A DNA stretch of 62,948 nt, the filler included, from Asterionella formosa (Eukaryota), in assembly GCA_002256025.1 (NCBI GenBank). It is 11 parts of 11 records of this genome, joined end to end, with 100 filler letters (N's around TTAATTAATTAA, not from the genome) between each part and the next. Parts side by side here need not be neighbours in the genome. Positions count along the whole stretch, not along the records: positions 1 to 24,381 come from NKIB01002262.1; 10 more parts are not named here. One strand, written 5' to 3'. The translations under genes were made by a program, and so were the position numbers. This document shows, in pieces, positions 770-48,875 of the stretch (position 1 is its first letter; the number at the start of each line of letters is the position of its first letter). The notes below the pieces were generated by a model. It did no database searches. It was given only the letters and a program-made list of their open reading frames with translations, and had not been told where the DNA came from.

Positions 770-990
770 TTGATTGATGAGTTTATGTACTGGTAGGCAC
801 ATATATGCATACCTCTTTTGCTGAGAGCAGGCCATTTCAGGTATCAGCAAGCAAGTCTTGAAGTATCTCCGCAAATTATATGTAGTCATACATAAATATA
901 CATAATTTTATATAATGCACTGTTATTTCTAACTGTTAAAAAATTTGTGTTTTTGTTGACCTAATTTGGTAACTCTGGTTTGCACCTAAA
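770..990. repeat. Dispersed repeat, diverged inverted copy of ~47712-47945
   Basis: Reverse complement of ~770-955 (aaacacaaattttttaacagttagaaataacagtgcattatataaaa...ttcaagacttgcttgctgatacctgaaatggcctgctct...ggtatgcatata) aligns by eye with ~47762-47945. Segment 954-986 matches 47726-47758 in direct orientation. Confidence 0.85.
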
Positions 991-1341
991 AAACTGTATA
1001 AATGGTACAAAGTCAAGGATGAGGCAGCATTCTTCCCAAGGTGCCAGATGCAACTTGTGCCTCATCCTAGTGTAGGTTACCCAAGTCTGAAAATGTCTAG
1101 TAAATAAAACTAGGCCTGGAATACTGTACCAAAGAAAGTAAGTGACACCACCTCAGGAAGAGTTGTATAGATGTGGTTGTGTTTAAGTGTAAAATTTAAA
1201 CATGACTACCAAAGTCATGTGAATGATATTCATGTACTTGATATATGTAGGCATGAAAACTTCATTCCTTTCCATTATGTGTTGAAAGACTGGGGACAAG
1301 GTGTAAATGGATAGTAGTTCTTTACTGTCATTCGAGCAAGT

Positions 1342-2691
1342 TCAGTTTTCGTAGAAATATGGATGTTGCAAAGCAGCTTTGCAGGCAATTCGTCGATCGG
1401 GATCGTAATGGAGTAATTTGGTTAACAAGTCTGCTGCATTGACTCCTCCCAATTGATCCAATGAATAATGATCAGTAATGGGTGTTTCTCTCCATTGAGG
1501 GAATTCTGGATTGTAATGTGGTAATCTCAATACAGCTGGCCACATGTCCGCTGTGGGAGTGCCTCTACGTTGGAAAATTTTAAACAATTGATCAATATCA
1601 CTCCGTCCAGGGAACAACGGCATCCCTGTGGCCATTTCAGCAAATATGCATCCCACTGACCAAACATCGACAGCAGTACTGTACCGATTGGCACCCAATA
1701 ACAATTCTGGAGCTCGATACCACAATGTAACAACCTCAAAAGTATATGGGCCATTGGGTATGGCAGACAAGCGTGCTAGTCCGAAATCAGCCAATTTTAA
1801 TTGACGCCCATCTCTGGATATGAGAAGCTGTTGGTGTTTGTGTGTATAGTTGATGCATTACATATAAGAGAGATTTTAAGAGGGAGGGTGGGAGTGAGTG
1901 GTGTACCATAAGTTTGAGTATCAACAATACAAAAGAAATAAAATGCCGTACATTATGTGGCTTCAAGTCTCTATGCAACACTCGGTAGGTGTGACAAAAG
2001 CCCACCCCAGCCAAAATCTGTTTTAGGAAACTTTTCACCATTGGGCTTGGCAATCCAACTCTATCAGCAATGTCGTCACTGGTTTGATACTGATCCATAA
2101 AAGATTTCAAATCATGTGCGACGAATTCAAATACTAGATACAATCCACCAGGATGAGCTTGAATAATATCCAACAATTTGACAACATTGGGATGATTCAA
2201 TTCTCGCAATAAACTTATTTCACGAATGACATTGCAGGGAACTCCTCCCTCAGGTGTCGAATCAGCAAACGGGATACGCTTGATGGCAACAGTTTCACCT
2301 GTGGCGTTCGTGGTTCCTCTAAAGACAATCCCGTAGGCACCCTGGCCAATCAATTCCGTGCTGCCAGATATCAAGTTGGCAAGTAAGTGGAGGTACGATA
2401 TCAAGTTCTACCTCTATGCATATGTATTTCTGTAAATTAACTCTGCAAAGTAACAACGTACCGAGTGTAACCTTCCAGAGGTGGCTCATCATCCAATTCA
2501 GCCGCATGGACTCGTCGGGCTGCTCTGGCTGGGTCGACAGGGTCATTGTTGTTGTCTCTCACAATGGCGGCTGGATTATGATGGCGATGAGGGTGTGCAT
2601 CTCCCATAGCCACATCACGCTCATCGTCCTCCTCTTCTTCGTCATCACTCACTTCATCTAAAATATCATCTTCGAAGAGGTCGTCTTCCAT
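1342..2691 (-). CDS. Cyclin-dependent kinase (CDKA/CDK1-related, PCNVIRE variant), 3 exons
   Basis: Exons 2691-2462, 2360-1952 and 1827-1342, with GT-AG introns 2461-2361 and 1951-1828 that restore the frame. Motifs: IGQGAYG, VAIKRI, EGGVPCNVIREISLLREL, HRDLKPHN|LL, DFGLAR, VVTLWYRAPE, DVWSVGCIFAEM. Confidence 0.95.
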
Positions 2692-9770: not shown

Positions 9771-10005
9771 GGATCTCGTGGATTGCTAAAGACTAAACGA
9801 CGAAGATGACAAAATTATTTAATCCAGTTGTCCTGGTTTGTTGAAATATATTTATGGCGACTACTCTAGCGCGCTCCAGTACTGTCCTGGAATGACCGGT
9901 CAAGATCTATCTCGCGCCGCTCGTTTGCTTATTTTTCTACTACATAGAAAAAAATACTGACTACATGCCGGTATTTTCGTTTAGACATTCCTCAGATTTC
10001 ATCTA

Positions 10006-10652
10006 CCGTATACTTCATTGTCCTGGACCCCCCAATGTTCACTGCCGTGACTGAATTTGACTGATTTTACTTAAGGGGGCCCAGGACAATGAAGAGATTT
10101 CCCTTATAATAGACATAAGTAAATTTCTTTAGTTCTACAGGATAGCGCACATTTTTCTAAGATGTATTAATATGACAATTATTTCTGTCTTTTGAATATT
10201 GAGAGAGTTCTTCACCTCGCAAGAAAAACGCGACTTCATGTTGTTATCGGCGATCTCAATTTTCGTTGTCATTATTAGTGTTATTACTTTACTTCTTTTA
10301 CGATTGTATTTTCCGTGTCGTTCTTAATTCAGGCAGCAAGTAGCAAAGCGTCGTTCTCTATTTTCGTGGAGGTAATTCGTATTTTCGTCATGGTCAAGCT
10401 TGCGACAACATCATGAAGGATTCTCCAGCTGCTCACAGCCACTACCTGTCGTCTCTTGTGTTTTGTATGTACAAAAGAATCGCAAAATGGTAGCTAAATA
10501 ATTATATACTAGTGCCTACGAGGACAAAAAGAAATATAGCACGTTACTTTGTCTATGACAAGAAAATTATTGGGTGTTTGGTTCCACCTCGAGAAAAATG
10601 TACAGGGGGGTCCAGCAACCATAGGGGGGGTCCAGGACAATGAAGTATACGG
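10006..10652. mobile_element. Tc1/mariner-pogo-type MITE, 647 bp, 28-bp perfect TIRs, TA TSD
   Basis: TA|CCGTATACTTCATTGTCCTGGACCCCCC (10006-10033) and its exact reverse complement GGGGGGTCCAGGACAATGAAGTATACGG|TA (10625-10652). Partial internal TIR copies at ~10075-10094 and ~10605-10615. No transposase ORF. Confidence 0.92.
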
Positions 10653-10837
10653 TAGTCGTCGGACACATGTCGTCATCAACAGCCTAACAGACACACTCTG
10701 ACACTGATTTTCGTACGCTTGTATTTTAGTTCCGGTACAGTCCCCCTTTGCGCTTCATACAAACAAAGTTGACTGCCATTGAGCATGGTTTGACAACGAG
10801 TATCAAATATAATATGTACCTGGTACCTGCTGGTACC

Positions 10838-15599: not shown

Positions 15600-18500
15600 T
15601 TGGCCTCAAGTGACAACGACAAATTCTCATGAGGATATGTTTCAGTTGGAAATAACTGTTCTTCAATTTTGTATCGACAAAATTTTGTCATCCTATTTAG
15701 ATTTAAAAATGTTGAACAAAGTATTTGGACGAGTTCCTTGCAACTCTTCTTTCAAGAAGGATGAAGTTGTCTACATAAAATCCATGAAAACAACAAAGTA
15801 ATGACAAACGTGCTCCCTTCAAATGGTATAATCATGCACCTCTTGGCCAAATTTCTGGATGCATCAAAATTGACAAAAAGTTGAAAGAAAATTTTGTATC
15901 TGATGATGGCCCTTCTGGAATCAACTTGAAGAAGTTTGCAGACTCATATCGAGCTGCAGTTGAAAAGTGGAGAAGCAAAATTTCGGACGAAACGAGAAGG
16001 ACAATCTTAGGTTCTTTGGGAGTGAAAAAGAACAAATAATGGACCATTGGATAATCATTTCTTAGGAAATTGTAGTTTGTGAAAACCTCATAATAACCAA
16101 TTTAGTATGCGAAACTATATTGTTACCATTATCATTTATATTATTCTGCAAATGATCACCAAGTCAGGATATTAAAAGGATAGAATGAAAATGAATTAAT
16201 TTAAAATAATAAATTGAGTGCCACTTCGAACATGCTGTGCTGGAAAATACAGAGACGTGAAATTATCACTCCACCATAGTAGTGAAAATGGAGGTATACC
16301 GCTACATACAGTACAGGCGGCACTAATAGTAATAGTAGTATAGAGCAACATCAATGTTTTCCTAACATCTATGATATGGTTTGTGCATTGTAGAAGTCTC
16401 ATACTAACTATATTAATAATATAACTACTAAGCATGCATTGGATTCTATTAGATCCATTCAAAATCAATGTCGTTATCAATGTCCCATTGATTAATGCGT
16501 TCATTGTAATCAATATTCTTCTCAGGAACATTTGGTTCAAGTGATTCAACAAATTGATGCATATCCTCTTCACTTACATTGGGAAATGAGAAGTATGAGT
16601 GTGGGTAGATGATATTTGCTGTGGGAGTAGCAATTCCACTAGGATTCCTTCCATATTCAGATCGATTCTTTGGTGAAAGTCCAGTGTAGATTTCCTTATA
16701 ATAAACGAGTAGATCATCAGTCCATTTATCAGTGAGACCATTTGAAACTGAACTTTCTTCCATTGCTCACACTTTTTTTGATAAGTGGTTTCCCACCAAT
16801 GTCGACAAAATCAGTAGAATGACGAATAGCTATCGTTCTCTGAAATTTCCTGCGTATCTGGATTGAAACCCAAAATTTTTTGCTACAATCGGAATTTTCC
16901 TTTTAGCACCAAGAAGCAAAAGGCTTCTGTACTGGCATTGATCAGCGAACCAACAAAACGTGTCTGCAAATCACACTGTGCCCGAAGACTGAGTTGAAAT
17001 TTGGTCATACCAGATTTTTCTCCTGTTAAAAATGGTTCTCCACGGCTTGTCCTGCCTGCCTATAAAATACACCGGAGCAAGAACATCACGCCAGACTTGG
17101 TATCCATGGCTTCCCCTTTCAATGTCCTTTGACTGCGCAAAACTATAAAGCGTGAACGCCCACCTAATAAAGTCATCAATATCCATAGTCTGGAAGTTAG
17201 CTATATTCTGTTAGACCAGCTGGTGTGTCATGAATTATGTTAGCATTTTTAATTCAAACATATTTGATAAGAATATAATCACCAACTCAAAACATCATGC
17301 TTTCAGAGCATCTCGGGCCCTGCAAGAACTTACCTAAGATTCCTTTAAATTGATTATTCAATAGATACATTCTGACATTCTCTCAACTTTTTAATGCACA
17401 TGCCACCAAATGTTGATTTGATGTAATCTAAACGTGCCTTGTTGGTACGTTCAATGGTCTGATTCATCGGAAGTAGTGCATCAAACTTACATGTTCACAG
17501 CAAAACTTCTTGGTCTTGAAAGTAAAAGCAACTCACAACCTTTGTTACAATTTATGGATCGGTTCAATTTTAGCTAAGCGAGAACGACGTTCTGATAAGT
17601 CTGCTGAAATTGAAGATTCTTGATAACCTCCTATGGACAAGCGAGTTTTGAACCGAATTACGACCTTTGTAGCGATGGAGTTTATTGACCAATTGATAAT
17701 ATCCTTTGGCAAGTGCAAAATTTTTTTCCCTCAGTTTGTCATGTACTTGTTGGTCCGTGCGATTAGAAAATTTGTGATATGGTACCATGTCGTCCATCTG
17801 CATCCGGGAGTTACTAATGGTATCATCGACAGGAGCCATTTTTCTTGTATCAAGAACTGAAAAAGAATATGTCATCATCTCTTTCAGTATCAATTATGGG
17901 AGCCTTTGTACTAGTAGCTGATGGTGTCCCCATCGACAATGGGGTAGTACCCCCACTAACTCCCTGTTGCCGATTGGGTTCCTTTGGATGATCGCCTATT
18001 CGCTTTTTCTTTGTTAACTCATTTTGGTACTTGATTCTTTGTTCCATACCGGCAGTATTTGCCACATGTCGCTTGTTTGTTTCATGAACCTTTTTATGGT
18101 TACTTGAAGACATTGTACTACTTGATAACTGTTGTCGTTGTCTTCCTTAAAGTTCGATGATCTTAAAATCAGGTGTTGCAAGCAAGCTACAATGAAATGA
18201 ATCATCAGCCACTACATATAATATTTTACGCTGTCTAGATATGATACCATAAAACCAACAGTGCTATTTACATTATCATATACAAAATCATAACCGAGTT
18301 TGAGTAATAGCATATTTTGTTTTCAATTATACGATTACACAATCCTAAAAATGTGATGATTTACTGTTCCGCTGCAGTAGCAACAGTCATGAACATATGG
18401 TGTTTTATTGCTCACTTACTTTTCCGACTATTCTCTTTCAATTTTATGATCATATGATCCTAAAACTATGATGATTTACTGTCCTGCTGCAGTAGCAGCA

Positions 18501-18850
18501 GTCATGAACATATGGTGTTCTGTTGCTCGATCACTAGTCCAACTATCCTTTTTCAATTTTATGATCATACGATCCTAAAACTATGATGATTTACTGTCCC
18601 GCTGCAGTAGCAGCAGTCATGAAGATGTGGTGCTTTTTTGCTCGCTCACTGCTCCGACTATCCTTTTTCAATTTTATGATCATACCATTCTAAAAGTTTT
18701 ATGATTTACTGTCCGACTGCAGCAGCAACAGTCATGAACATATGGTGCTCTGTTGCTCGCTTACTACCAGGTACCTGGTACTCTGACTACCTGGTCTGGT
18801 ACCCCCAGTATATCACTTCCTACCTGCTACTGGTACTCTGTATATATATA
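15600..18850 (-). mobile_element. Unclassified degenerate element: broken ORF remnants plus terminal tandem repeats
   Basis: Chain of short stop-riddled minus-strand ORF pieces (15832-18205). Its right end (18131-18167 and 18340-18852) is shared with 52904-53410 on another contig, so it is repetitive. No recognisable transposase motif. Confidence 0.5.
18320..18766. repeat. Tandem repeat, 115-bp unit, about 4 copies
   Basis: Unit atcctaaaactatgatgatttactgtcccgctgcagtagcagcagtcatgaacatatggtg... starts at 18342, 18457, 18572 and 18687 (exact 115-bp period). Confidence 0.95.
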
Positions 18851-20185
18851 TGTACTTGTCACCTGGTGCCACTTTGGATAGACACTCTCAGTTGTGATCA
18901 CAAAACAAGATGGGAATGCCATTAACAACACAAAGGCATATAGAAGGAAGCGTACCCCTCCTTCGCCAGTTATGTTTTTGCCTGATTCTTATGGCAAAGG
19001 GTAGGATTAGTCAGTTTATATATAATTATAGTGAATAATAAATTGTTACTCTATTAAAATTTGTCATTTCATGGGAGCAAATTAGTGTTAGTTACGAGGC
19101 TTCATGGGTGCAAAAAATCCAATTCTTTTCTTGCCACGCAGTTCAGGAAGTACCAGCAGTGCTACTTGTAATTGTCGTCGATTTCGAGGCAACAAAAAGC
19201 GATATTAAGCAAACACCTGATGGTCTGGGGTCTACTGATCCGCGCTTGAATTTCTTTGCTCAGTAGATTTTCGGCCCCAACATGGTGCTCGAGTTTCAAG
19301 TGCAGGCGGATGCCTGCATGGCATCTTCTGCCATGACAGAAAGGATCACTGATAACACTCTAAGGAAAGATTAAATCAAATAACTGGAAGGCAGTGAACT
19401 TCAAATGAATTGGAAGGGATGAAAATATTGGATTGCTCTTTGATGTGTTGTTTAACTGTCTCCTGACTTGTTCTCCCACTCATTATCAAGCAAGCAAATT
19501 GTTTGCAAATTCATCATGACACAATTTTTTCAGATGCTGGGGAATTTTCAACACCAATATCAAGAAATCCAGCTGGATTGATTGTTGAATGTACTTGGCA
19601 CCTTTGCCAATTGCCAAATTTCGTTTTCGCCCCATCCTGCACAGACATTTTTGAGATTTTTTTTGGCAGGCAGACTTTTCATGTATCTGAAATTTTAAAC
19701 CTATATAAACTTGTTGTCATGCATAACTACAGAAGGCTACAGTTCTGTAGATTTAGATTAACTTTTCAGAAATGAAATATCCATTGAATTGAGCCAGGGG
19801 CAAGGGATTGAAAACCCAGACTGAATCTAGTCTAGTAGACCAATACCCGGAGGTACATGGCGGCGAAGAACTGACAGGCAAAAGGGCGCGAAACCATCAA
19901 TCATTCTTGGAGCTCATGATACTTTTTATATAGCGAGAGTGTATTGACATTATTACGCTTCGCTTTTGTGTCTGCATTCATTGATTCTCTTACATGACAA
20001 CCGACCTACCGGTAGTTTGACTTGCTTTTGACCTGTATCGGGGAACACCGGTAATTATTTTGACTGACAGTCAACCTCATCATCAAGCCATTAGAGAACC
20101 ACTTTCCTCGTTCTTTATTTGCCTGATAAACCGAGAACTCGGGTTGTGTGTTGTTCCTTCGACGAAGTAGACATTTGAATTGATC

Positions 20186-24381: not shown

Positions 24382-24481
24382 NNNNNNNNNNNNNNNNNNN
24401 NNNNNNNNNNNNNNNNNNNNNNNNNTTAATTAATTAANNNNNNNNNNNNNNNNNNNNNNNNNNNNNNNNNNNNNNNNNNNN
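24382..24481. other. Artificial contig linker N44-TTAATTAATTAA-N44 (first of ten)
   Basis: Identical 100-bp six-frame-stop spacers at 24382, 48776, 50352, 51928, 53503, 55078, 56653, 58228, 59802 and 61376. The intervening contigs are sorted by decreasing length. Confidence 0.99.
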
Positions 24482-25779
24482 TTTTTTTTCAGAACACACC
24501 ATTTTGTCTGAAGAAGACCAAATGCCATTTCTATTCTTATCCTTAGCTGTGAAAGGAAAAAGTTAAATGTATCCTGTGTTGGATCATCACGTTGTGAGCC
24601 AACAAAGGGAACAAGCATTACATCAGACAATGTGTAAGCTGCATCGCCGACCAGATAAAAACCTGTGTTGAATGCTGCAACTTGATCGAAAATGGAAGTT
24701 TTTTCAAAAGCTACTTGGTCACTGCATTTTCCCGGTGCAATTACACCAAAATAAATAAATCTTGAGTCAGCATCACAAACAGCCTGGACATTGATTCCAT
24801 AAGTCATGTAGTGACCGGAAAAAAATGAACCAGGGTTGTTGCCACTTTCAACTATAGTCGGGCGGTTGATGGTGGCAAGGAAGCCGTCAATAGCACCAAC
24901 ACATCCTCTCATCACGCCCTCTGAGCTTTTGCATTCAAAGCTGGAAGCCAATTTGATAAATTCTTCTTTTTCTTTTGGAAAAATAATTTCGAGTTCTTCA
25001 CAGTTTAGTACAGCATCAATGAACAAATCACGACATCGATAAAGTGAAGCAATGCTACAACCGTAGGCATGACGAATGTCGATGTAACTGCCACCAGCCA
25101 GCCATCGCAAACCAATGGCTACCACAATTTCGGGAATTATGGGCTCAGAAGTGCCACATTTGGAATAATTCCCTGCAATCTGAATTTCCAGCATGGAGGT
25201 GAGTTTTTTGAATGCTCTGTGTGACATTCTGTATGTCTTCTCGAAAGCAATCTCGTGATTGAGTTTCTCGACATGTGATTGCCAGGAGATTCTTTCGTGG
25301 TGCCACTTGTGCCTTCGTTGTCGTCGTCGTTCAGATGACTGAAGCTGCCGTTTACAGCGTCGCCTTTGTCGTTTGGATGAGTGTTCTTTTTCCTCTGCTT
25401 CCTTAGTTAAATGACAGAGGAAGAAGAAATCAAGATCACTACTGTCATCGTCATTATCATCAAGTAAATCAAATGGCGACGACATGATTCATGCAAATGT
25501 GTGTTTTTAATATTATATTTAGTTTCCCGGTAATTATATTTTGTTGTTGCTTGATATCAAGACCATCATTATATTCCGGAGGGATATACACATGATCTTC
25601 GCCAGCCAGTTGCCGTTGAAGATTCATTTTACTCCATGATACAATGTGATCACAAATTAGTGATACAGTGACACTTTTGGAATGAATGAAATTCAGTTCA
25701 AATCGAGTTACCGTTGCTGATACATTTTCAAAAAAATTCAAATTCCGTGATACACGAAAAAAAATGATAAGAACGACCC
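24482..25779 (-). mobile_element. PIF/Harbinger DNA transposon, 5' part (transposase CDS 25485 to contig end)
   Basis: DDE_Tnp_4/HARBI1-like motifs YRMSHRAF, LRWLAGGSYIDI, GCVGAIDG, INVQAVCD, LVGDAAY, FNFFLSQLRIRIEMAFGLL. Candidate terminus TCA|GGGTCGTTCTTATC at 25779 (3-bp TNA target). The other end is lost at the contig break. Confidence 0.92.
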
Positions 25780-26138
25780 TGAGGATTCGTGTCATTTGTA
25801 CGCCATGAAAGTCCATGTGGTCCATGTTTCGGATCATCAAATAATGATGCTGGATCGAGGAGACGACAGTACAGTCTCGGTCTGGATTGGACCTGCTAGT
25901 TCAAGCTATCGAAGATTTTCATAGTCAGTAGAAACTATTGTTGGGAGCTAGTAAGTTATACAGGTCCTTCCTTTGATAGGTTCCACTCAGAGCTGCTACA
26001 CACTGAGCATGATGCTGCAGCTGATGCTGCAGCTCAGTTAGTACACCTGCATTATCTTGCTTTACATGAAACTGTTTCCCAATAAATATCGCTGCCTGAA
26101 GTCTAAATGAGGCTAGTTCATTGTCAGCATATGCAATA

Positions 26139-27019
26139 TCATTCATTCAAAAAGGCTGTGACATCCTTGATCACTTGCTCTGCATTTGTCACATGCATCC
26201 AATGCCCACCAGTCACATAAGGGATATGTTTGCATCCTGGGGTGGCTTCCAGCTGACTTAAATATTTGGGGGAATGAAAGTTGCACTTCTTTCTTTGACC
26301 ATATAAAAACAATTGAGGAACAGTTTTGCTGAATCTTGGCATACTGATGGGTTGGAGGAAAATCAGTTGAAAATAGGGGTAACATTGGTGGGGTCTAATC
26401 TTCTCCCATGGGAGGAGCTGCAAGTAAGAAGATTACAGAGATGAGAGTGGAGTGCAATAAAAATCCATATCATTGTGTTCTTCTACATACCTCGTTTTTA
26501 TTTAGTGGGCCAATCAATGCCCATGGATACAGATAAAAGATCCAACCCATGCACCTACTGGCTAGCTCATCATTTCCACAGAATAATCTGGAAATCAAGA
26601 AGATCCAAGCAAGAAATAATTGATATCCCATGATAATGAAAGCTTGCTTGATAGAAAGTGTGGAAACTAGTCCTACATCTTCCGCCACCAATTTTGAAAT
26701 AGTTTCAGGATAATGGTGAGCATAGCTCAACACCACCATACTTCCCCAATCATGACCAAATAAATAAATCCTCGCCTTGAGTCCCAATCTATCTCGATAC
26801 TCTTCCACGACTACTGCCAGAGCATCCACCACTTCCCGATTGGAATAACCCCAAAAGCGTCGAAGAGATGGCTGGTCCATGTCGGGATATGCCATTCTGA
26901 CAACATGATAAGTAGTTTCAAAGGATGGAGCGAGTTCGTTCCATGTTTCGACAGAGTCAGGAAATCCAGATAATAGCACTAGTACTGGAGGTGGGTTCTT
27001 CGGATTCGGCGGTAGGCCA
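26139..27019 (-). CDS. Alpha/beta hydrolase (epoxide hydrolase-like); first exon not resolved
   Basis: LLSGFPD oxyanion motif, GHDWGS nucleophile (Asp) motif, C-terminal GGHWMH. GT-AG intron 26490-26418; probable acceptor at 27020 and an upstream donor near 27160. Confidence 0.85.
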
Positions 27020-27692
27020 CTGTACAGGAAAGGTATTCTCAGTTGGACATGACATTCGAATCAACAATAGGAGGAACATTTCGATGCGAACGAACCTTCG
27101 ATGAACAACCAAAATGCCCTTTCTTTCAATAGGATTCATATCACTCATATCTCACTTACTCAAACCAATCAGATAAACCCAAGAAGAGACGAGAAGTGTA
27201 TCACTAAAGTAGTGATTCAAGAACAAGAAGTTGTGTTTCACAAGGAGAAAGCGAATTTTAGTTGATGTGAAATAGATTGATGTACCGGTATATGGAGTAC
27301 TTTTTTTGTCTTGAGGAGTTTCTGATGCTCAAAATACTGCCGGTAAGCGAGCAAGCAAGCAAGCAAGCAAAAAGATCACAACATGGAAATTAGGTGGGGG
27401 GTTGGATGGCTTTCATTTAGATCACTTTTTTGATTTTGAATGTTTCGAAATAGGATTCGACAACACATAAAATATGTAGCCAATGAAGTTACCGGTACCA
27501 TGTAGCTAAAGTATTGATAGAAGCATATTATACTGCCGGTTATAATACCGGTATATCACGATAGATACTGTAAGGAACATCTCATCACCATATAAAACTC
27601 TATGAATTGCATCCTCGTGTCAAAAAACTTGATCGAAACAAGGTCAAAAGTCGATCTGACAGATTTGAATCTTTTTCTGTTGAGGTCGAAAA

Positions 27693-28172
27693 ATGGTTCT
27701 CCTCACCAGAATGCTCTCTCGCATAACGCCTGAAAATTCTCCTAGCCTATGGATGACGTTGAATGCGTTCTGTTTCGGATTTGCAACCTTTCTCTTAGTT
27801 GTGGCGTTTTTGAGCGACGATGATCGGCCGGTCAAAATGTTTGCCAAACAGAGCTTTTTGCTGTTCAACTTTACAACGACGATTGTTTGGTGCATGCAAG
27901 CTGGATTAAATATTTTGGATACCGAAGTTTCACGAATTTCCCGATATCAAAGAATAGAACTTGCCGTTGCAGCCTATTTTCTGATTGATTCCACCGTTGT
28001 GTTGCTCCAGTGGAAGTTCAAGAAGCAAAAGATGTCTCTTGTGGATCTCGATACGGGGATCAATTTTATTGTTTATGGGACTAGATTGGTGGATCAGATT
28101 CTCACTCAGCGTAAGCGACATGAGTATGAGGCCACAACATCTCAACATGACGAAAGCCTACAGGCAACGTAA
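27693..28172 (+). CDS. Small multi-pass membrane protein of unknown function
   Basis: 159-aa ATG ORF with about 4 hydrophobic segments. Confidence 0.65.
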   Translation: MVLLTRMLSRITPENSPSLWMTLNAFCFGFATFLLVVAFLSDDDRPVKMFAKQSFLLFNFTTTIVWCMQAGLNILDTEVSRISRYQRIELAVAAYFLIDSTVVLLQWKFKKQKMSLVDLDTGINFIVYGTRLVDQILTQRKRHEYEATTSQHDESLQAT

Positions 28173-28243
28173 CTATGCCGTTCTGGTACAAACTACTTGA
28201 TGGTACACCAAACGAGCATCATCATCTAGTCTCCTAAACTTCT

Positions 28244-29105
28244 CTACTTGAAGAACTCAAGCAGATTTTGGAAGGGAGACAAAAAGTCTTTTGTTGCAAC
28301 AGGTACGGGCATCATTGGAATCGGCCTGGGTTCCACGGGCGCAGCAGCGGGAGATGTCAGTTTGCCGATCAGGAATGGGAAAAGAGCGCTCAGTAAAATG
28401 TCCCAGCCAGGAATAGAAAATCTATCTTCTTGGAAAGATATCAATCCTTCGTCATTGACCTTGAAGTCAGTGTAACAGATGTATGGTTTGATTGTCAACC
28501 CAGGTCCAATATTCACCTTGCCCGAAAGTCTCCAAGTTACCGTAATGGTGCGAGGAATTGTCTCATTCACAACAACAGAAATAATTTCAGCTCGAGATGT
28601 TTCTTGATCGAATAATTTGTAAACTCCTCTTGCATACTCTGTACGTCCAAACAAAAGAATGAGTAATGCATTCCCTATACTAAGGTTCGAGAGACGATGC
28701 TGACATACCTTCAATACCCTTGAGTTTTACATCAGGATCTTGGAACTCGAATTCATCAGAAAAGTACGACGGATTCACGTTACCAGTCACGAACCACTCC
28801 TTCGCATACAGTTCAGAATCAAGCATAACAGCTAGCGTCTCCAGAGCCACATTTGCAAGTTTTGGCGCAGAAAAATCAATTTTAGCTAATGGATCTTCCT
28901 TCTTCATTTGTGCTTTATTTTGCATAAAGTTAGACAAAATGCTGGTAGCTGCATTTCGGTATTCTTCCGGACCAGAGTACTTGTCAGGTGTAGCCAAAAG
29001 CGCAATTCGTCGATAGGGATTCGTCTCTCGAATAGGACTTTGGAACGCGAAACATGTCTGAATCAGAAGGATTGCAATTGAAGGTCGAGATATCATAAAC
29101 ATCAT
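28244..29105 (-). CDS. Plastid-targeted NTF2/SnoaL-like (DUF2358-type) protein, 2 exons
   Basis: Signal peptide ending CFA-FQSP (bipartite presequence pattern). Motifs WFVTGNV..YFSDEFEFQDPDVKLKGIEEYARGV and VTWRLSGKV. GT-AG intron 28708-28639. Confidence 0.8.
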
Positions 29106-29816
29106 GTGAGCAATAGTCGAAGGTCTTCGAGTTGACAAAAATTCAACAAGTTAATTGTCAGAAGTGAACAAAACCCCAAGGACACAAAGTCGAGATCCAT
29201 GCATCGCAGATTGCATGAAATAAAAGTGACGAGCAGGCAACGAAAAAGTTCCTTTTCATCATATCCTTAACCTATGAGTATATGCATGATGGGTATATTT
29301 GTTTTGCTGCAACAATTTCTTGCATTATAGCTAGCTACGAATACCACTACCGGTATCCAATAATCGCACTCGGGCCCAAATAAACAATGGACCACGCAAT
29401 TATTGTAGGACCGGTGTTATTTGTGTGCACGGTACAATCTGCATGTCCACCAGGCAAAAAAAATGTGGTAGACTACCGGAAGTCTAATCCAATTAACAAA
29501 AACATACAATAAGACTATACAGACCCGTACAATAAACAAAACAATTCCACTGCCTGCCAAGAAATCTGATCGGCATCCTATCTTACCGGTATGTACCGAC
29601 ACGGGTACCTGGTACCGGTATATAGCAATAGTCGTATGAATGTGAAAGATGGCTGTGCCAATCTATACCACTACCGGTATTCGTCCTCACCATCAGGCCG
29701 ACTACTGGTACATATGTACCAGTACCAGGGTACTCCCCTCGCATAACACAAGTGGAGTCCATTTCATCGTCGCCGCTAACTCCTACAGTGCCCATTGGTA
29801 GCAACTGCGCAGCGAG

Positions 29817-31814
29817 ATGACATCTACTTTTGAACGCGAAGTCCAATCAACCGCTTCCGCTAGCTTCGAAGCAGCCTTTGTGTCGGCCACTGCCCATGAG
29901 GAATGGACCACGTCTCCCAACCCATCGGAGGGATCTCTCCCGTGCACGAGTCTCCCCGAGGGAACCACGATTCGCGTGAATCCCATGAATCGTCAATACA
30001 ATGGCTGGAATGAAGCGCACTTTCACACCAACCTGCGTCTACCAATGGAGTGCAGCATAGCCAAGGGCCTTGTTGTTACATTGGAAGGTAAGTAACTATG
30101 GAAGGCCTCGGGGCTCATTCATTGCGGGCAAGCGAAACAATCTTACCCTCCGTTGGCTTCATTTCTCGCTATTGCTCTAGCGTCTGCTCGAGAATGCGTA
30201 GCAGTGGCCCTTTCCCCCAAGGACTACTTTGATTTGGGCAAGACATATGCCATCCACTTCGGAGCAGCCGGTAACACCAGTACTGTCATTCGGCGTCGTC
30301 TCATTTCTGGTCACGAAGCTGTAGATGTTGCTTTCCCTGGAAGGGTCTGTAGCGATCAAAAGTGGGTCAGTTATTGGATATGTTTACTGGCAGGACGGAT
30401 TTATGCTGGACTAGGCAAGCAGCCAGGACAGCAGTGTGTGGGATGCTTGGACGACACTCTTTACCATCAATTGAGAAGTGGAATGGATGCTGTGAGATTC
30501 GTAGGATTGGGCAATTCGGTCTTGGGCAAAAGTGCTACAGCCTTGAAGGTGCGCAACGTCTGTGTGTGCTCTGTACCAGAATATCTGGTGCAGGTGCTGG
30601 ACCAGCTACCATTAGAATTGCCAATTATCAACGTGGACGTGGTAGATTCAGGAGAACTGCAGAAATTGATGGAAGGCTATCAAAGGGAATGCTTGAAAGC
30701 CAAGAAGCGAGCGGAGAAATTTGGAATTCCATACAAGGCACCGCCACCACAGGCTTTTTTCCTATGGTCAGATGCAAGGAAGATTAGAGCGAACCCACAA
30801 AAGGGATTCATTACCGGCATGGATGTCATGTCACATGAAGAGTTGGAAAAGAAAAAGGCTCGAGCAGCTAGATTTGGTGCACAAAAGCGAGAAATTGACG
30901 ACGATGAAAAAACTGAAGTAACGGAAGAAGACGTCATGGAAGAAGAAGCTTTGCCGGTACACGAAGCGTGGGACAATGAGGAACTTGTTCAAGAACATAG
31001 ATGGGACCCTCCTACTTCGTTATGGATGGTGCCATCGGAAAATCAAGATGAAGCGGATGAAGCGAAGGAAGAGTATTCCATGGAGGTGACTACAAAGCCG
31101 AAACAAATGCCGGAAAAGGTCCATATTTGCAGCATCGATTGGGCCGCGTTCAAACAAATCCGAACCGACGACATGATGGCACACTTTTCCATTTATGGCC
31201 CATCCTATATCGAATGGCTTGGAGAGCTTTCTTGTAACATCCTGTTTGAAGACAAGTTTTCTGCTGCACGAGCGTTGAATGGAATGTCACAAGAACTTCC
31301 GTCACCTGCACCAGAAGAATTGAACAGACCGTCCACCACGGACGGTCAAGGTGCATATACGGCACCAGATTTTGGCAACATGGGCTGGCGATTTTGCCTA
31401 AAGCCCATCAGAAAGGTAACAAAAGATCGCTTTGGTCGAGTCGGTACAAGAGCCCGTATCCTGATGCGTATTGCTAATTCAACCGACGTTTTAGTGGAGA
31501 AACCCTCGACATTTCCCAAGCCACCTCCTGGTTTTACTACCAAACGTGTGCTGGGACCTGGAGACGACTTTGGCCATCGAAACAAACGTCAACGCCGAAT
31601 GCCTGAAGATGACGAGGAAATGAATCAGGAACATCCTGATCTCACGCGAGGGCTTCGCTCTGGTCGCGATGGTTACTCTGTCGAGGATTTGCGAGCTGAG
31701 CGATCCTTACCTTCACATGGTGATGCTACTTATGAAGTACGCAATGATTCTGAAACGGTAACATTCGACGACATCTTTCCATGGGACGAAGAGCCTAACA
31801 TTGCGGAAGCATGA
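29817..31814 (+). CDS. NCBP3: Nuclear cap-binding protein subunit 3-like, with extra N-terminal domain, 2 exons
   Basis: Intron 30088-30180 (GTAAGT...CTCTAG). FITGMDVMSHEELEKKKARAARFG and the RRM-like KVHICSIDW..IRTDD..HFSIYGPSYIEWLGELSCNILFEDKFSAARAL match remembered NCBP3 signatures. Confidence 0.8.
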
Positions 31815-32311
31815 ACTTGTGTTTCGGCTGAAGTATTCTTTCCATCCGACGTTAACGACTTCATGATTCTGGTTGGGTGTGTATTTTCTTTAGCTACTTT
31901 TTTTGAGTTTTTGTCGGGTTAGTCATTGTGCAATTGATCTGGTGTTACAAGGCTCTCCTTATTCTTCATGAAATGGCAATCATCGCCTGGCGAACGAAGA
32001 ATGGGCACGATTGGTACAACGCATGTTAAACAGCCAGAAAGAAGAGTCCATCACTCACTATGACTATGCTAGAATGAGAGGATATATTTGAAGATAGTTC
32101 ATTATCTTAATACACTGCCTAGATAATTGTTAAAGTTATCGAACGTCCGGGCATTCTCTTATTTAATGTTTGCTGTGCCTTCTTCGGACCTACGCTCCCT
32201 CCATGTGGCATCAAATCCTAGCTAGCTATCGCCAAAAGTAGGTCCATAGGTTAATCAGTTTTGTATGAATTTTACACTAATGTACAACACAGCACGATGT
32301 TCTTGATATTA

Positions 32312-33055
32312 CTATTCCAACGCTGCTAAGCGTTCCGCCATGGTCTTGCTCTCGAATGTCTTGCCAAACACAATTCGCTCCAATTGCTTAATTCGTTGCG
32401 AGCGATTCCCGTCTGGCTTGGTAACACCCCACGCTTGTTCAATTTGAACTATCCTTTGATCCCAGTTTGACACAGCAAGTATTTGTGATGCTGGCAACGG
32501 GTCAGTTTCCGTTAAATTTGCAAGATAAGTAATATGATTCGCAGCAACGTCATCGACGTCTCTGCCCGCGTGGTCGAGCAAGTGATGGCGGGCCATGAAT
32601 TTATGGATGAAGTGAGGCGTGATTTTGAGATTCTGAAGCGACCGTTGTTCTGCATCTATGGGTTCGTTGATATTTGCCATTAGGTGGTCCTTCGCCTGGT
32701 TCAGCCATAGTTTAATTGTGGCCCTTGACAGCCCGTCGTCCGGCTTGGTTGCACTCCGTTCTTGAATCCATCCCATGACCATGCTTTCGAGAGAAGGAAC
32801 TGTTGATTTATGTATGGACTTATTGCACCCCTTCATTGTACTCGCCGCATCTAGGATCGAAGTTTTTCGCATGCTCCATTTCCGAAGCGTTGACTCGGCC
32901 AATCCAAAGCGGGAGCAAGTATCAGTAAAACTGGCTGAATGCTGTTGCATCCAAAGGAGTACTTGGGCCTTGTCCTTGTAGTTCAACCTCTGACGATGTC
33001 GCCTGGTTGCATTTGGACAAGGGTTTGCTTTGACTGTAGGAAGTGGAGGTGTCAT
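32312..33055 (-). CDS. CENP-B/pogo-type double helix-turn-helix protein without DDE domain
   Basis: RQRLNYKDKAQVL...FGLAESTLRKW (psq-type HTH), then PSLESMVMGWI...LSRATIK...FIHKFMARH (Tc5-type HTH). Intact 247-aa ORF; no catalytic domain. Confidence 0.75.
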   Translation of the reverse strand: MTPPLPTVKANPCPNATRRHRQRLNYKDKAQVLLWMQQHSASFTDTCSRFGLAESTLRKWSMRKTSILDAASTMKGCNKSIHKSTVPSLESMVMGWIQERSATKPDDGLSRATIKLWLNQAKDHLMANINEPIDAEQRSLQNLKITPHFIHKFMARHHLLDHAGRDVDDVAANHITYLANLTETDPLPASQILAVSNWDQRIVQIEQAWGVTKPDGNRSQRIKQLERIVFGKTFESKTMAERLAALE

Positions 33056-34075
33056 GATGGATAATATCTGTATGTATGTATCATAAATATTTTAGCGACC
33101 TGGTACTCTACCCGGTAGACTACCTAGTACCTGGTACTCGGACTTTGGACAAGTCCTACAGTATACGTACGTGCGTACTGGTATATATATCGGACGAGAT
33201 TCGCACCAATCACAAAATTATGGGTCGACTTCCTTAAATATGCAGCTGCCGAAAAGATGATTGTTTTGATGTTTTGATCCTTCGTCCTAACGCGACATTC
33301 ATGTGAATGTATGTTTTTTGTAAGTATATCAGTTCAAGAGTTTAAACAAAGTAAAGTGTTGGATATAAATCTTCGTTAGAATCAGGTGTTAAAAGGATTT
33401 ATGGTATTTTCGTTGCTGTTCCCTAACGAAAATTAAGAATTTGTCAGTCAGGTAGGTATACATACAGAAATACATGGATTGTCATTGCTAGCAGGAAAGA
33501 AATGAGGAATTTAATCAATTTTGACTACTTGCTATTGCAGGTATTCCTTATTACCGGTATTTCAGGTAGGGTACCAGGTACCAGTAGCCGAATCTGGACC
33601 ACTAAATACTACCCAGTACCGGTAAATAATTTCTTGAAAAATACATACCGGTACTGGTATTAGTACATCTGATATATATAAATAATTGCGACGAAATGAA
33701 ATTCGGTAGCGACCTATGATTCCGCTTTGAGATACAAGGGCATGAATGGTCCTTAATTATCAGTATGTTTTGATCCTACCGCATAATTTTATTGTGATAT
33801 CATCTGTTTGATTCCCAAATAAACTGATGTGGAACCACTTTTAAACCGGTAATCCTTTTTTATCTTAGACATCCAAGCTAACGACAAAGAAGCTATTCCT
33901 GCAGTTGCTTAGTGTCTATACTTTGGGATAGCTGTAGACTACAGGTATATAGTCTAATTGGAAAGAGTGGCACTTTAGCTAGACAACCACCTGGGTTGGT
34001 TTTTGATGACCATTTCAACCTAATGATAGTAGCTACAACTGGTCAACGATAGTTGATGAAGGGACATCTCAAATT

Positions 34076-34492
34076 CTACATTTGTGATGAACCCAAGTTG
34101 CCAATAAGTTGATCTTTCGCAGCAGGATGTTCCCTTAGCCATTTCGGACTGTACGAAAATGTTACTTCCTCATCTATAATCTTTGCGAGATTGAAGTCCG
34201 TTTGAGTCAGTCCCCGCAGCTTGTGAGTCCACAATGATATCTTTACCTCACGATAATTGGTTAGCTGCAAGTCGGGGTGATGGCCTTCGCGTTCGGCGAC
34301 AGCACCAACGGCATTCAAAGCATTCAAGCCAGCCTGGAAGTCCTTGGCTGTAAATAGTCGTGAAATGCGATACGAGGGAGTCCTGCCATCATCCATGTCT
34401 TCGAGCGACCATAGTGGCATATCGGCTACTTGCGCTCGGACGTCTTCGATGGGAAGTAAGGCATCCATGCTGGAGGCACAAGGGGTGCACAT
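34076..34492 (-). CDS. PCBD: Pterin-4-alpha-carbinolamine dehydratase
   Basis: FTAKDFQAG, AEREGHHPDL, LWTHKLRGLTQTDFNLAKIID. First in-frame ATG at 34492. Confidence 0.92.
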   Translation of the reverse strand: MCTPCASSMDALLPIEDVRAQVADMPLWSLEDMDDGRTPSYRISRLFTAKDFQAGLNALNAVGAVAEREGHHPDLQLTNYREVKISLWTHKLRGLTQTDFNLAKIIDEEVTFSYSPKWLREHPAAKDQLIGNLGSSQM

Positions 34493-34853
34493 TGTACTCG
34501 TAGTACTACTGCGTGATGTTGCGAGCGAGGAACGAGTATTTCGTTGCTTTTCTTGTGAATTCTTGAACAACAATGGAGCTTTTTTATTTGGAAGGAAATG
34601 TGATCAATCGAACGCCATATTTTGTTACAGTTACTACCGGTACTGGTACAATGAATAAGGTTTTATACAAAGTAAGTTTTACGTTCAGAAGGGTACATTT
34701 CGGTATTGATTTTTGTTTGTACCCCTGGTACCAACCACAAAAAGCGGAAGTTCAATATCTGTAGAATTAATAACAAGGCCGAGCAAGTGACCAATAGAAA
34801 ACACCAGTATGGGCGCTACGGAACTCTAGTGCTAATATGTAAGGAAATGATTG

Positions 34854-35948
34854 CTAGTACAGTGCCGCCCAACAAGTCAATGCCTCGCTGCTGTCATTCG
34901 CCTCCTTCCTTGGGGCCCTCCAAAAATGATTGGGGTAGTCATTTTCAAGCGACACCTGATCAGTCAATGGGAGTGATCCAACAGCCTTGATAGTCAATAC
35001 CCCACCATAGGCCTTAAATATTCCCCTAACCAATTCCTCAGTTAACCAAGGTGTGTGGGACAGGTCCAGGACTTGCAATTTGGGAAGTAAGTCATGCATC
35101 TTCCAAAGAATTTCTGGCCCCGAATTGTAGCCAAGACTCCCAACAATTCCCAAGTGAGTTATGCCTCCACATTTCCGAAGCAACGCTGACAAAGTCTCCA
35201 CAGACAAGTGAGGTACATGTCCCAGTTCCAACCGTTGTAATTTGACACACCCTTTCCATGCGCCATCGAAAGTTGTTGTATCTTCTTCCCACGAGTTTGG
35301 AATCGTCTCACGTTGGATTCCCCACTGCGGAATAATTTCTAAAATGGCATCATCTGTTAGAGCTTTCCACCTAGAATCGTCTTCATCGTCTGTCTGGGGA
35401 GCTACTAAGCAGAGAGCTTTGACATGGTCATGTGGACCCAATACTTTGCAGATTTCGTTTGTCATGCCTATTTTGGAGCTGACCAATACAGACAAGTCCG
35501 TCAAGGTATCACTGGGCAATAAAGAAAGATGATACTGTACCAGTTCCGAACCCCAAGCATCAATGTAGTCTTGAAGTGCAGGTGCCAATGCTTGCAGGGC
35601 GAGTGATTGTAGGGAGGGGATCGCCCCGCTGGTATAGTCAGTGCGCGGGTCATCTGCCCCGTAGTAAACGACCCATCCCGGGGGATTTTGCTGCTTATTG
35701 GGATGATTGGTGACAGATTTTTTCTGTCTCATGGCACGATATTCTAGACGATCGTCGTATTCGCGTTGCTGCAGCAACCCTTGCAAGGAATGCCACTGAA
35801 TCTTCGGTCTCTCTCGAGCCTGGTCTGGTTTCTTTGCTGATCGTCGTTTGCGTGATGATGGCAACTGCTCGTGCCACTCCAGTTGAAACTGTCGGTTCAT
35901 AGCCTTGCTAGCAAAGGCGCCTGCTTGATGGCCTTTCCCTTTTCCCAT
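34854..35948 (-). CDS. RNI-like leucine-rich-repeat protein
   Basis: 364-aa ORF with a basic N-terminus, IPSLQSLAL (BC-box-like), and LRR-type segments CVKLQRLELG, ITHLGI, LPKLQVLDLSHTPWLT. Confidence 0.7.
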   Translation of the reverse strand: MGKGKGHQAGAFASKAMNRQFQLEWHEQLPSSRKRRSAKKPDQARERPKIQWHSLQGLLQQREYDDRLEYRAMRQKKSVTNHPNKQQNPPGWVVYYGADDPRTDYTSGAIPSLQSLALQALAPALQDYIDAWGSELVQYHLSLLPSDTLTDLSVLVSSKIGMTNEICKVLGPHDHVKALCLVAPQTDDEDDSRWKALTDDAILEIIPQWGIQRETIPNSWEEDTTTFDGAWKGCVKLQRLELGHVPHLSVETLSALLRKCGGITHLGIVGSLGYNSGPEILWKMHDLLPKLQVLDLSHTPWLTEELVRGIFKAYGGVLTIKAVGSLPLTDQVSLENDYPNHFWRAPRKEANDSSEALTCWAALY

Positions 35949-36024
35949 GTTTCACATTTGTTGGGAATACGCAATGTAAAGAATACAGGCCAATTCCTTC
36001 CTTGATGACAATCGCTACTGATGT

Positions 36025-36296
36025 TGTTTGAGAAATTATTTTAGGAAAGAAAATCCCGGTATAAATTACCTACTACATGTTGAATCGAATTAATCAAGAA
36101 AGAATGCCGGTATGGTACCAGAGAATTCGAAAACAATCTACGCCAACAGTAAAACCCATAATTCTATTAAAACTCTTAGGAACGATTACAATCGATTACG
36201 GATACATCGTTGTTCATATCTACAGCCTATTTGGTCCCTGACGTGTTCTTACAGGATACAAGAAAGCATAGAGTGCTTCGGGACGCAATTTCAACA
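36025..36296 (+). repeat. 5' LTR (272 bp)
   Basis: Aligns to 41318-41587 with about 8 substitutions and 2 indels (hand count). Confidence 0.95.
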
Positions 36297-36432
36297 GTTT
36301 TAATAGAATTAGCCGGCCAGGAAGAGCTGTGATATCACACAATCAACAACAGGTTGGACCGTTGAGAGTCCGGTGACAAGATCTGAGGGTACCAGACCAT
36401 CCAGAGTCTGAAGAAGTCGCACAAGGCGCATC

Positions 36433-39400: not shown

Positions 39401-41295
39401 AGATGAGGATGAAGAACCAGCAAATGAAACTGAAAATGCAGAGGCATTGCTAGAAGTCAATCCAAGCACTCAGAATGAAACAGACCCAAATGTTAGAACT
39501 ACAAGGGCTGGAAGAGTCTCAAGACCACCATCAAAACTAACTATGGTCCAAAATCATTTGCATACCCAAGCACACTGTCAAGAAGAGTACACGACTGATA
39601 ATGCGAAAGTGATCTCAATGACAATGTGTTATATGAATGAGATGTTTATCGATAAAGAAGCATTTCACTTTGTTCAGTCATACAGCTTAAGGAAAGGCCT
39701 CAAGAAATTTGGTCAGAAAGGAAGAGATGCTGCCTATAAAGAAATGAAACAACAACATGATAGAGTTGTATTTGAACCGATTAGGACTGAAGACCTAACC
39801 GATATCGAAAAGCGACGTGCAATGGAAAGTCTAATTTTTTTGGTTGAAAAGAGAGACGAGAGCATTAAAGGCAGAGCATGTGCCAATGGCAGTTCGCAAC
39901 GTGAATACATGGAAAGAGATGAAGCAGCTAGTCCAACCACCATGACTGAATCTGTTATGATAACAGCAACAATTGATGCGAAGCAAAATCGCGATTTTAT
40001 GACTGCAGATATACCCAATGCATTTGTGCAAGTGGATATCGATGAGAAAGAAAAAGGGGAGCGAATCATTATGAAGATTAGAGGTTTACTTGTCAATATG
40101 TTGACAGAACTCAGCCCCGAGACTTATGAAAAATATGTTGTTTATGAAGGAAACAACAAGGTCCTATATGTTAGGATGATCAAGGCATTATATGGCATGT
40201 TACAGTCATCATTATTATATTACAAGAAATTTCGGAAGGATATTGAGTCAATTGGATTCAAGGTCAACCCATATGATCCATGTGTAGCAAATCGCATTGT
40301 TAATGGCAAACAGCACACAGTTACTTGGTACGTAGACGATTTGAAATCAAGTCACGTGGACAGCAAAGTGAATGATCAATTTTTGGAATGGCTCAAAAAG
40401 AAATACGCTTCTGACGAAATTGGTGAAGTCAAGGTCATGCGTGGAAATAAGCATGATTATTTGGCAATGACACTAGATTACTCTCTTCCAGGAGTGTTGA
40501 GGGTAGACATGACCAAATATGTGAAATCAATGATTAATGATTTTCCAGATAATCTTGAAGGTGTCGGAAAATTTCCATGGACAGATAAATTGTTCACAGT
40601 TGATACAAAATCAAAGAAGCTTGAATATGAAAAAGCAAAAATATTTCATACTTTTGTTATGAAAGGAATGTTTCTATGTAAGCGAGGAAGACAGGACATT
40701 CAACCAGGAATTGCATTTCTGGCAACCAAACCGAATGAAGGCGATTGGGTAAAATTAATCAAGATCATGAATTTCTTGAAAGCAACTCAAGACGAGGTTG
40801 CATCTATGAGTGCTCATGACACTCAGAGCATTAAATGGTAATGTTGATGCGGCGTTTGCAGTACACAAAGATTTTAAAAGTCACACAGGAGCTACAATGT
40901 CACTTGGAAACGGAATTATTTGTTCTATGTCTACAAAGCAGAAAGTGAACACTAGAAGTTCTACTGAAGCAGAATTGGTTGGTGTCGATGAAATTATATC
41001 AAAGGTGTTGTGGACGAAATTATTTATTGAAGCACAAGGACACAAGGTGACTACGAATGTCATTTACTGTGACAACACTAGCGCAATGAAGCTAGAAGCA
41101 AATGGAAAAGCAAGTTCAGGAAAACGCACGCGACATTTCAACATCAAGTATTTTTATATTACTGATCTTATTGAAAGAGAGGAAGTACAGTTTGAGTACT
41201 GTCCATCGGATGCAATGTTAGCAGACTACATGAGGAAACCACTGGTTGGAACGAAATTTATTCATTTTCGTCAGCAAATTATGAATTCAAAGTGA
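36433..41295 (+). pseudogene. gag-pol polyprotein, disrupted
   Basis: CYCCGKVGHKSSSC (CCHC knuckle), ILLDNQS (protease), CDNEF and EHVPEAERNNR (integrase), ADIPNAF, ALYG and WYVDD (RT), DAAFAVH and SSTEAE (RNase H). Stops or frameshifts near 38030, 38420, 38600, 39160 and 40840. Confidence 0.93.
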
Positions 41296-41317
41296 GCATC
41301 CATGTCCAGCAGGAGTG

Positions 41318-41587
41318 TGTTGGAGAAAATATTTTAGGAAAGAAAATCCCGGTATAAATTACCTACTACATATTGAATCGAATGAATCAAGAAAGAATAT
41401 GGTACCAGAGAATTCGAAAACAATCTACGCCAACAGTAAAACCCATAATTCTATTAAAACTAACTCTTAGGAACAATTACAATCGATTACGGATACATCG
41501 TTGTTCATATCTACAGCCTATTTGGTCCCTTACGTGTCCTTACAGGATACAAGAAAGCATAGAGTGCTTCGGGACACAATTTCAACA
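41318..41587 (+). repeat. 3' LTR (270 bp)
   Basis: TGTTGGAG...TTTCAACA, followed by TSD GATGT. Confidence 0.95.
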
Positions 41588-48775: not shown

Positions 48776-48875
48776 NNNNNNNNNNNNNNNNNNNNNNNNN
48801 NNNNNNNNNNNNNNNNNNNTTAATTAATTAANNNNNNNNNNNNNNNNNNNNNNNNNNNNNNNNNNNNNNNNNNNN

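Follow-up and report, generated by a model that had tools for sequence, protein, structure and literature searches.

The stretch of Asterionella formosa DNA analysed here (the window) measures 62,948 bases and consists of two long contigs (24,381 and 24,294 bases), eight short ones (1,476-1,474 bases) and a final piece of 1,473 bases up to the window end, with ten artificial linkers between them (N44-TTAATTAATTAA-N44; 24382-24481, 48776-48875, then eight more through 61376-61475). The closest protein cluster of a fused Asp/Asn-hydroxylase and sulfotransferase open reading frame (ORF) in the window is from diatoms, and a 9.9-kb stretch was found in 20 public runs from 16 studies, whose labels include algae, freshwater and lake-water metagenomes (four were unlabelled). 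Dispersed through the window are two kinds of short palindromic unit bounded by TA, TACCGGTA and TACCWGGTA (W, A or T), and a non-autonomous pogo-like element with CCG...CGG ends lies between two TAs at 10004-10654 on the plus strand. The units, and their probable origin as excision scars of the transposon family to which this element belongs, are the subject of this report.

In the 62.9 kb, TACCGGTA was counted 30 times and TACCWGGTA 19 times, where dinucleotide shuffles predict 0.28 and 0.21, respectively (for TACCGGTA, 0 of 100 shuffles reached 30). An unbiased k-mer ranking returned these units as the most enriched 8-, 9- and 10-mers once linker words, among them TTAATTAA and TAATTAATTA, whose counts the linker inflates, were set aside. 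TA lies on both sides of 30 of the 112 CCGG words (27%), 19 of 118 CCWGG and 15 of 460 CCAG/CTGG, compared with about 0.2-1.2% for ordinary words; a preliminary examination of the DNA (the sequence-only reading) had described the units as insertions at TA. Enrichment and TA-flanking together exclude chance as the source of the units. They also avoid long ORFs: the 32 listed ORFs of at least 155 codons contain 47% of the bases, and inside them lie 1/30, 2/19 and 1/15 of the three classes, respectively. A similar density (12 TACCGGTA and 14 TACCWGGTA in 27.8 kb) was observed in 11 metagenome loci that carry relatives of the element and were obtained by scanning metagenome contigs with 21 bases of its end. 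Exact units total 403 bases (0.64% of the window, or about 1.2% once long ORFs are excluded), far from the 'much of the intergenic sequence' first attributed to them; decayed units would raise this total.

Insertion of the units at TA could be observed directly in pairs of homologous copies, one filled and the other empty, and all such pairs are at TA. The sequence 18761-18801 reads ttacTA-ccaggTA-cctggTA-ctctgacTA-cctggtctggTA-ccccc, and a related copy at 53345-53364 reads ttacTA-ctccgacTA-ccccc, with a difference at 1 of the 50 bases of the right-hand flank that both have in common. The first unit, TACCAGGTA (18765-18773), adds CCAGGTA at the TA of 'cttacTA' and has no counterpart at 53349-53350 or in the consensus of a 115-bp satellite, of which 18761-18801 is the last, partial unit. 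On it, with one TA in common and in the opposite orientation, is stacked TACCTGGTA (18772-18780). The third, TACCTGGTCTGGTA (18788-18801), is a CCTGG unit in which five bases, CTGGT, are duplicated; it lies at the TA of 'gacTA', where the related copy has a plain TA (53358-53359). Since neither the satellite consensus nor the other satellite units have them, the inserts are the derived state. The satellite is enclosed by a composite repeat (18129-18852 and 52901-53410) whose 38-bp left borders are identical and 50-bp right borders nearly so; 3.9 satellite copies occupy 18320-18767, and the two repeat copies are unlike in the number of satellite copies and in the structure of the units.

Two exact TACCGGTA units lie within satellite units of the second repeat, each amounting to +CCGGTA at a TA relative to the 115-bp unit: one at 52946-52953, where other copies read tttaCTgtccc with a single TA, and one at 53068-53075, after 'ccgac', where other units have a plain TA. 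Two short contigs provide a further pair, since they hold 91%-identical copies (the second inverted, 55811-55178) of which one has TACCGGTA at 52558-52565 and the other a plain TA at 55259; apart from this one and the CTA described next, the indels of their 645-column alignment are +TA, +A, +ACA and a 25-base block. The same contigs have in common a TACCGGTA unit at 52494 and 55314-55324, with an extra CTA at its TA (55316) in the latter copy only. Finally, a copia-type LTR (long terminal repeat) retroelement (RVT_2) occupies 36025-41588, with 273-bp LTRs that are 93.5% identical, and its 5' LTR contains TGCCGGTA at 36105-36112, six bases more than the 3' LTR, which has TA at about 41398. A second RVT_2 fragment is present in the first contig (11933-13024). 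The word in the 5' LTR is one base off the exact unit and is a variant or mutated form of it that arose after integration. Twenty-two contig loose ends of one public run (X1, see below) match the LTR form without the six bases, which makes the LTR event an insertion after integration as well. All six pairs listed in the sequence-only reading are thus real, and so is the timing that it gave for the LTR event, the exception being that the LTR word is not an exact unit. Every pair other than that between the LTRs compares different contigs, possibly paralogues or haplotype copies rather than one locus.

Insertion differences were also found between natural samples. We aligned contigs of four runs from four studies (X1, X2, X3 and X7) to positions 24482-36400; such contigs give no allele frequencies, and the number of polymorphic indels obtained from them is a lower bound. 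X1, in the long pieces compared, had no differences from the window and is probably its source run, and X2, X3 and X7 had scattered single-base differences. The TACCGGTA unit at 33646-33653 is present in all X1 contigs; X2, X3 and X7 each have one contig that lacks six bases there and reads TA-CTGG-TA where the window reads TA-CCGG-TA-CTGG-TA. The adjoining TACTGGTA unit is common to all runs. The CCGGTA unit is hence polymorphic in nature, a newer unit seated on the TA of an older one. Among the indels listed for this region, it is the one variable site of 11 TACCGGTA sites. Further indels between samples include +18 bases at 33274 (TGATTGATCCTTCGTTCC; X2, X3 and X7), four bases left out at 33365 (X3 and X7), +C at 33712 (X2, X3 and X7), and +GGTA after cGGTA at 33704 in X3, which could be either a minimal version of the same kind of insertion or plain slippage. 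These comparisons also bear on the idea that the motifs are an artefact of assembly or sequencing, which a window made of chained contigs and artificial linkers might invite. It is refuted by the contigs of the four runs, with their few differences across four studies, and by the similar motif density in metagenome contigs of other projects, and we give it practically no credence.

The units are stacked to an unusual degree. Eight adjacent pairs have a TA in common, where 500 simulated trials gave 2.1 on average and 7 at most, and 16 successive units lie at most 30 bases apart (simulated mean 5.1, maximum 12), the same 64 units having been re-inserted randomly at TAs of the 33-kb stripped sequence, a crude control in which coding sequence is included. 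Just outside the 3' LTR, a mixed stack at 41605-41627 reads TA-CCGG-TA-CCTGG-TA-C-TA-CGG-TA, and at 58895-58917 three exact units, TA-CCTGG-TA-CCTGG-TA-CCAGG-TA, are followed by ccagggta. Such arrays might suggest that part of the stacking, together with some single events, arose, with no new visit of a transposon, when existing 6-7-base units were copied by replication slippage or in short tandems and then mutated at single bases. The 58895 array, with CCTGGTA twice in tandem before CCAGGTA and the imperfect ccagggta, is in line with this, as are the 5-base tandem duplication within 18788-18801, the X3 insertion at 33704, which would be a plain tandem duplication, and the polymorphic unit at 33646, which, but for one base, would duplicate the CTGGTA beside it. 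However, 7 of the 8 adjacent pairs consist of units unlike in type or orientation, and slippage cannot make such pairs; 52558, 52946 and 53068 have no similar unit nearby that could have served as template; and the first unit at any site is beyond the reach of such a process. Insertions that are tandem duplicates of an adjacent identical unit were confined to minor events (CTGGT at 18790 and +GGTA in X3). We consider slippage an unlikely explanation overall, and one that accounts for the doubled CTGGT at 18790 and the tandem CCTGGTA at 58895. The description in the sequence-only reading of discrete, stackable insertions at TA that are constant whatever the flanks is supported.

The same reading had called for a TA-flanked family of terminal inverted repeats (TIRs) ending in CCG, together with an autonomous transposase, and both were found. 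The element at 10004-10654 consists of TA, 647 bp and TA, with perfect 28-nt TIRs (CCGTATACTTCATTGTCCTGGACCCCCC); the inverted arms measure 31 nt and are 100% complementary before removal of the flanking C-TA, and a subterminal copy of the repeat core lies at 10075-10094 (95% complementary). Scans of the window, first for CC-starting and then for any ends, gave two TA-flanked TIR families, this one and a CAC-ended miniature element described below; a family would have CCG...CGG ends by chance roughly once in 64. Across the window and the metagenome loci, 17 of 17 element ends follow TA (13 ends at 9 distinct sites after deduplication), and TA was present on both flanks of the four copies seen whole, those of the window and of loci L003, L009 and L010. 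The three whole metagenome copies are 97.1-97.4% identical to the window copy and 99.5-99.8% identical to one another (1-3 mismatches in 652-659 bp), and this near-identity indicates that the family moved recently.

A 2.3-kb version of the element, in which both subterminal regions are recognisable (86-94% identity), is present at locus L004. Enclosed by these regions, a 395-codon ORF (969-2156, minus strand) matches DDE_1 (PF03184) along profile positions 3-177 of 177 (E = 3.1e-22; 79.4 bits, against a cut-off of 22). Its N-terminus has a weak CENP-B_N helix-turn-helix match of 19.7 bits, below the cut-off of 21.2. The 90%-identity cluster of this ORF has 88 members; among the 15 listed, four are of 394 amino acids, one of 395 and one of 396, and one 394-residue member occurs on 13 contigs. 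The closest protein-atlas clusters are of DDE_1, Tigger and pogo families, the nearest from oomycetes, and a sequence search of solved structures with the transposase gave no match. TA flanks, TIRs, a DDE_1 transposase and the same element at different sites are all in evidence, and, judged by sequence, the family is of pogo type within the Tc1/mariner superfamily, with the window copy a deletion derivative. Pfam scans of 50 of the 67 listed window ORFs of at least 110 codons gave no Tc1/mariner or pogo transposase; the same scans matched a Harbinger-type DDE_Tnp_4, two RVT_2 and one HTH_28 ORF.

The inner bases of the units, CC(G)/(C)GG, match the ends of this element, CCG...CGG. For Tc1/mariner transposons, two accounts (PMC6943129, PMC2874221) describe a cut of the non-transferred strand a few bases in from the element's end, which leaves 3' overhangs, and footprints of non-homologous end-joining in which the terminal 2-4 bases lie between copies of TA, as in the TACAGTA/TACTGTA of Sleeping Beauty, whose ends are CAG. 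We consider it probable that the TA-CCGG-TA units are, likewise, donor-site scars left by the excision of a cut-and-paste, TA-inserting pogo-type Tc1/mariner transposon with CCG...CGG ends; that it is this element whose excision makes them, and by what stagger, we infer from the match. TA would be duplicated when the element inserts. At excision, the non-transferred strand would be cut slightly within the element, leaving each flank with TA and two or three terminal bases (CC or CCG), and end-joining would then give TA-CCGG-TA, either by pairing of 3-base CCG overhangs through their CG or by filling and joining of 2-base CC overhangs, with the same result. The net change would be +CCGGTA at a former TA irrespective of the flanks. 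Each hop would write one scar, and an active family would leave a trail of identical scars that survive only outside coding sequence, each with two TAs open to further hits, from which stacks would grow. The minor scar types predicted for CCG ends also occur: TA-CGG-TA and TA-C-TA in the 41605-41627 stack, and the +CTA at 55316, which is a minimal TA-C-TA scar on an older scar.

Forty-two words in the window differ from TACCGGTA by one base, and 15 of these are transitions of the central CpG (TACTGGTA, 10; TACCAGTA, 5). Together with the depletion of CpG in the window (0.72 of expectation), this leads us to read the CTGG/CCAG units as deaminated CCGG scars, which is what they look like, rather than as the separate +CTGGTA/+CCAGTA insertions initially proposed. 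Such decay also bears on the suggestion that TACCGGTA and TACCWGGTA are cis-regulatory words, for example sites of dimeric factors, kept by selection, with the route of insertion secondary. The words are palindromic, lie almost exclusively outside long ORFs, occur in most spacers between genes on the two long contigs and, among the indels listed, vary between samples at one of the 11 sites given above, all of which such selection would explain. Yet they decay by CpG transitions like neutral DNA, occur also in a satellite, in an LTR and just outside a retroelement, and their exclusion from ORFs is equally expected of neutral insertions of 6-7 bases, which leaves regulatory selection highly improbable as their principal cause.

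The CCWGG units cannot have come from TACCGGTA by point mutation. The centre of TACC-N-GGTA is A/T in 19 cases and G/C in 4 in the window, and A/T in 12 and G/C in 0 in the metagenome loci; the CCWGG centres of the window comprise 8 A and 11 T, so that both orientations are represented. One possible source would be the same CC ends, gaining one untemplated A on either strand before joining, which would give both the W centre and the two orientations observed. Alternatively, there might be a sister family, not seen here, whose CCA/CCT or CCAGG ends leave an A:A mismatch at the centre; its resolution in either direction would resemble the TAC(A/T)GTA of Sleeping Beauty. Two further joins that had been predicted, TACCGCGGTA and TACCGTACGGTA, have 0 occurrences each.

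Several observations weigh against an origin of the units by excision of the CCG-ended family. Among the window, the 11 loci and the four runs, which represent a tiny share of the genome, no locus has the element in one sample and TACCGGTA in another, and the data compared include no empty site for the element, whose TA duplication is taken from the rule of its family. The transposase copy is on a metagenome contig rather than in the window, and its second end is cut by the contig end. A full 3-base overlap in the manner of Sleeping Beauty predicts TACCGTA/TACGGTA, of which 8 were found outside element ends (one of them in the mixed stack at 41605) against 30 TACCGGTA, and the literature on pogo/Fot1 footprints gave no usable detail of the stagger. 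The second commonest unit is without a demonstrated source: TIR families ending in CCA, CCT, CCAGG or CAG, some of which the sequence-only reading had expected, were not found in the window or in the 27.8 kb of related loci, where the TIR scan gave the CCG family only, and TACCATGGTA, the product expected if CCA overhangs were joined without overlap, has 0 occurrences. Lastly, excision scars in rice are heterogeneous, with 8 of 94 being exactly two copies of the target-site duplication (PMC4423477), and the uniformity seen here would need a very regular repair route.

Some of these points can be turned in favour of a repair or nuclease process acting at TA that writes the units without a full visit of a transposon, by abortive nicking and addition of fixed bases or by templated addition: no locus was observed in both states, with the element and with the scar; the scans gave no source for the CCWGG units; and the uniformity is unusual beside the rice footprints (PMC4423477). 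Such a process, however, would not predict an insert that corresponds to the ends of a mobile element targeting TA in the same genome, and fillers templated by a polymerase copy nearby sequence, whereas the insert here is constant across flanks. We regard it as very unlikely, and continue with excision of the pogo-type family as the preferred origin.

If the units are such scars, they resemble the footprints of Sleeping Beauty, Tc1, Tc3 and Mos1, which PMC6943129 and PMC2874221 describe as small, fixed insertions at a former TA, with TA on each side and terminal bases within, made by end-joining after a staggered cut, an origin that for the present units is deduced. They differ in the inner word, which is CCGG (net +6) or CCWGG (net +7) here and C(A/T)G (net +5) in Sleeping Beauty, and in that the footprints of Tc1/mariner elements were seen in assays, whereas here they are the most over-represented 8- and 9-mers, stacked, and fixed or polymorphic in the wild. 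The rice survey of Roffler and Wicker (2015; PMC4423477) likewise treats excision scars as a source of indels between close genomes; most rice scars have deletions or fillers, in contrast to the dominance of one exact product in A. formosa.

The element itself has the features of pogo/Tigger DDE_1 transposons and of their miniature inverted-repeat derivatives (MITEs), such as Lemi1/Emigrant of Arabidopsis, namely TA flanks, TIRs, a subterminal core repeat, a DDE_1 domain with an N-terminal helix-turn-helix, and short non-autonomous derivatives with the same ends; unlike the known members, it represents a new family, of a freshwater diatom, with CCG...CGG ends. HIP1 of cyanobacteria is an 8-base palindrome that is vastly over-represented genome-wide, and it is not known to originate by insertion of a discrete unit at one particular dinucleotide; the likeness is one of appearance only, given the filled and empty TA sites and the matching transposon here. 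Our literature search, outside which lay subscription journals and preprint supplements, found no report of such scars in diatoms, and among the matches listed for TACCGGTA as a string none concerned transposons or diatoms. The mechanism is classical; the density, the uniformity, the dominance of one exact scar and the stacking are unusual.

Two of the nine element insertion sites (L006 and L008) lie on the TA of a CGG-TA scar. Taken with the stacking, the unit at 33646 and the CTA at 55316, these sites suggest that TAs next to older scars are preferred or that hops are local, although the numbers are small. We put forward, as a tentative proposal that may well prove wrong, that a pogo-type transposon writes one near-invariant palindromic scar per hop and prefers the TAs that flank scars (GG-TA-CC), so that repeated visits build GGTACC-rich arrays. 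The genome's most over-represented words would then be scars rather than copies, and these would steadily supply promoters with new palindromes.

Should the units be scars, they would form a countable record of transposon hops, one per hop, of a kind rarely recoverable because scars are usually heterogeneous. Hop rates, choice of target and fidelity of repair would then be measurable from population data of a wild alga, and the footprints of DNA transposons, not only their copies, would visibly shape intergenic sequence and the indel spectrum. Palindromic scars in the short spacers by genes are candidates for newly created regulatory sites, and the transposase, apparently intact as far as its sequence tells, with its short non-autonomous partner, is a candidate genetic tool for diatoms.

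Other mobile elements are present in the window. At 24430-25780, where the second contig starts, is an ORF for a transposase of Harbinger/PIF type (DDE_Tnp_4, E = 1.4e-23). Summed contig depth over this interval is far above that of neighbouring unique DNA in all four runs, and many loose ends begin at 25780, indicating that the element is present in many copies and ends on its right side near 25780. A 259-codon ORF at 32312-33091 (minus strand) matches HTH_28, a transposase-type helix-turn-helix (E = 3.6e-5), and has no catalytic domain; it was considered as a relative of the pogo-type transposase and rejected, as the two are not similar (best E 0.16). Directly upstream of it lies a scar array at 33099-33180. 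The second TA-flanked TIR element is a palindromic miniature of 100 bp at 43059-43162 with ends CACCTGCAAG... and 45-nt arms that are 87% complementary. It served as a control for the scars predicted from element ends, and those of its CAC ends are not enriched in the window (TACACGTGTA, 0; TACACTA, 1; TAGTGTA, 3).

Two metagenome loci that represent one locus at 99% identity, L002 (1159-1505) and L005 (2688-3538), differ by the replacement of 346 by 850 bases, after which they match at 92%; the replacement in L005 is preceded by a direct repeat of about 50 bases. The word GCTAGCTA is 13-fold enriched in the window. TAGCTA occurs 33 times throughout it (e.g. 32220-32230), so that 1.2% of all GC dinucleotides are flanked in this way, compared with about 0.4% for most words, and TA-GC-TA may be another small palindromic unit at TA sites.

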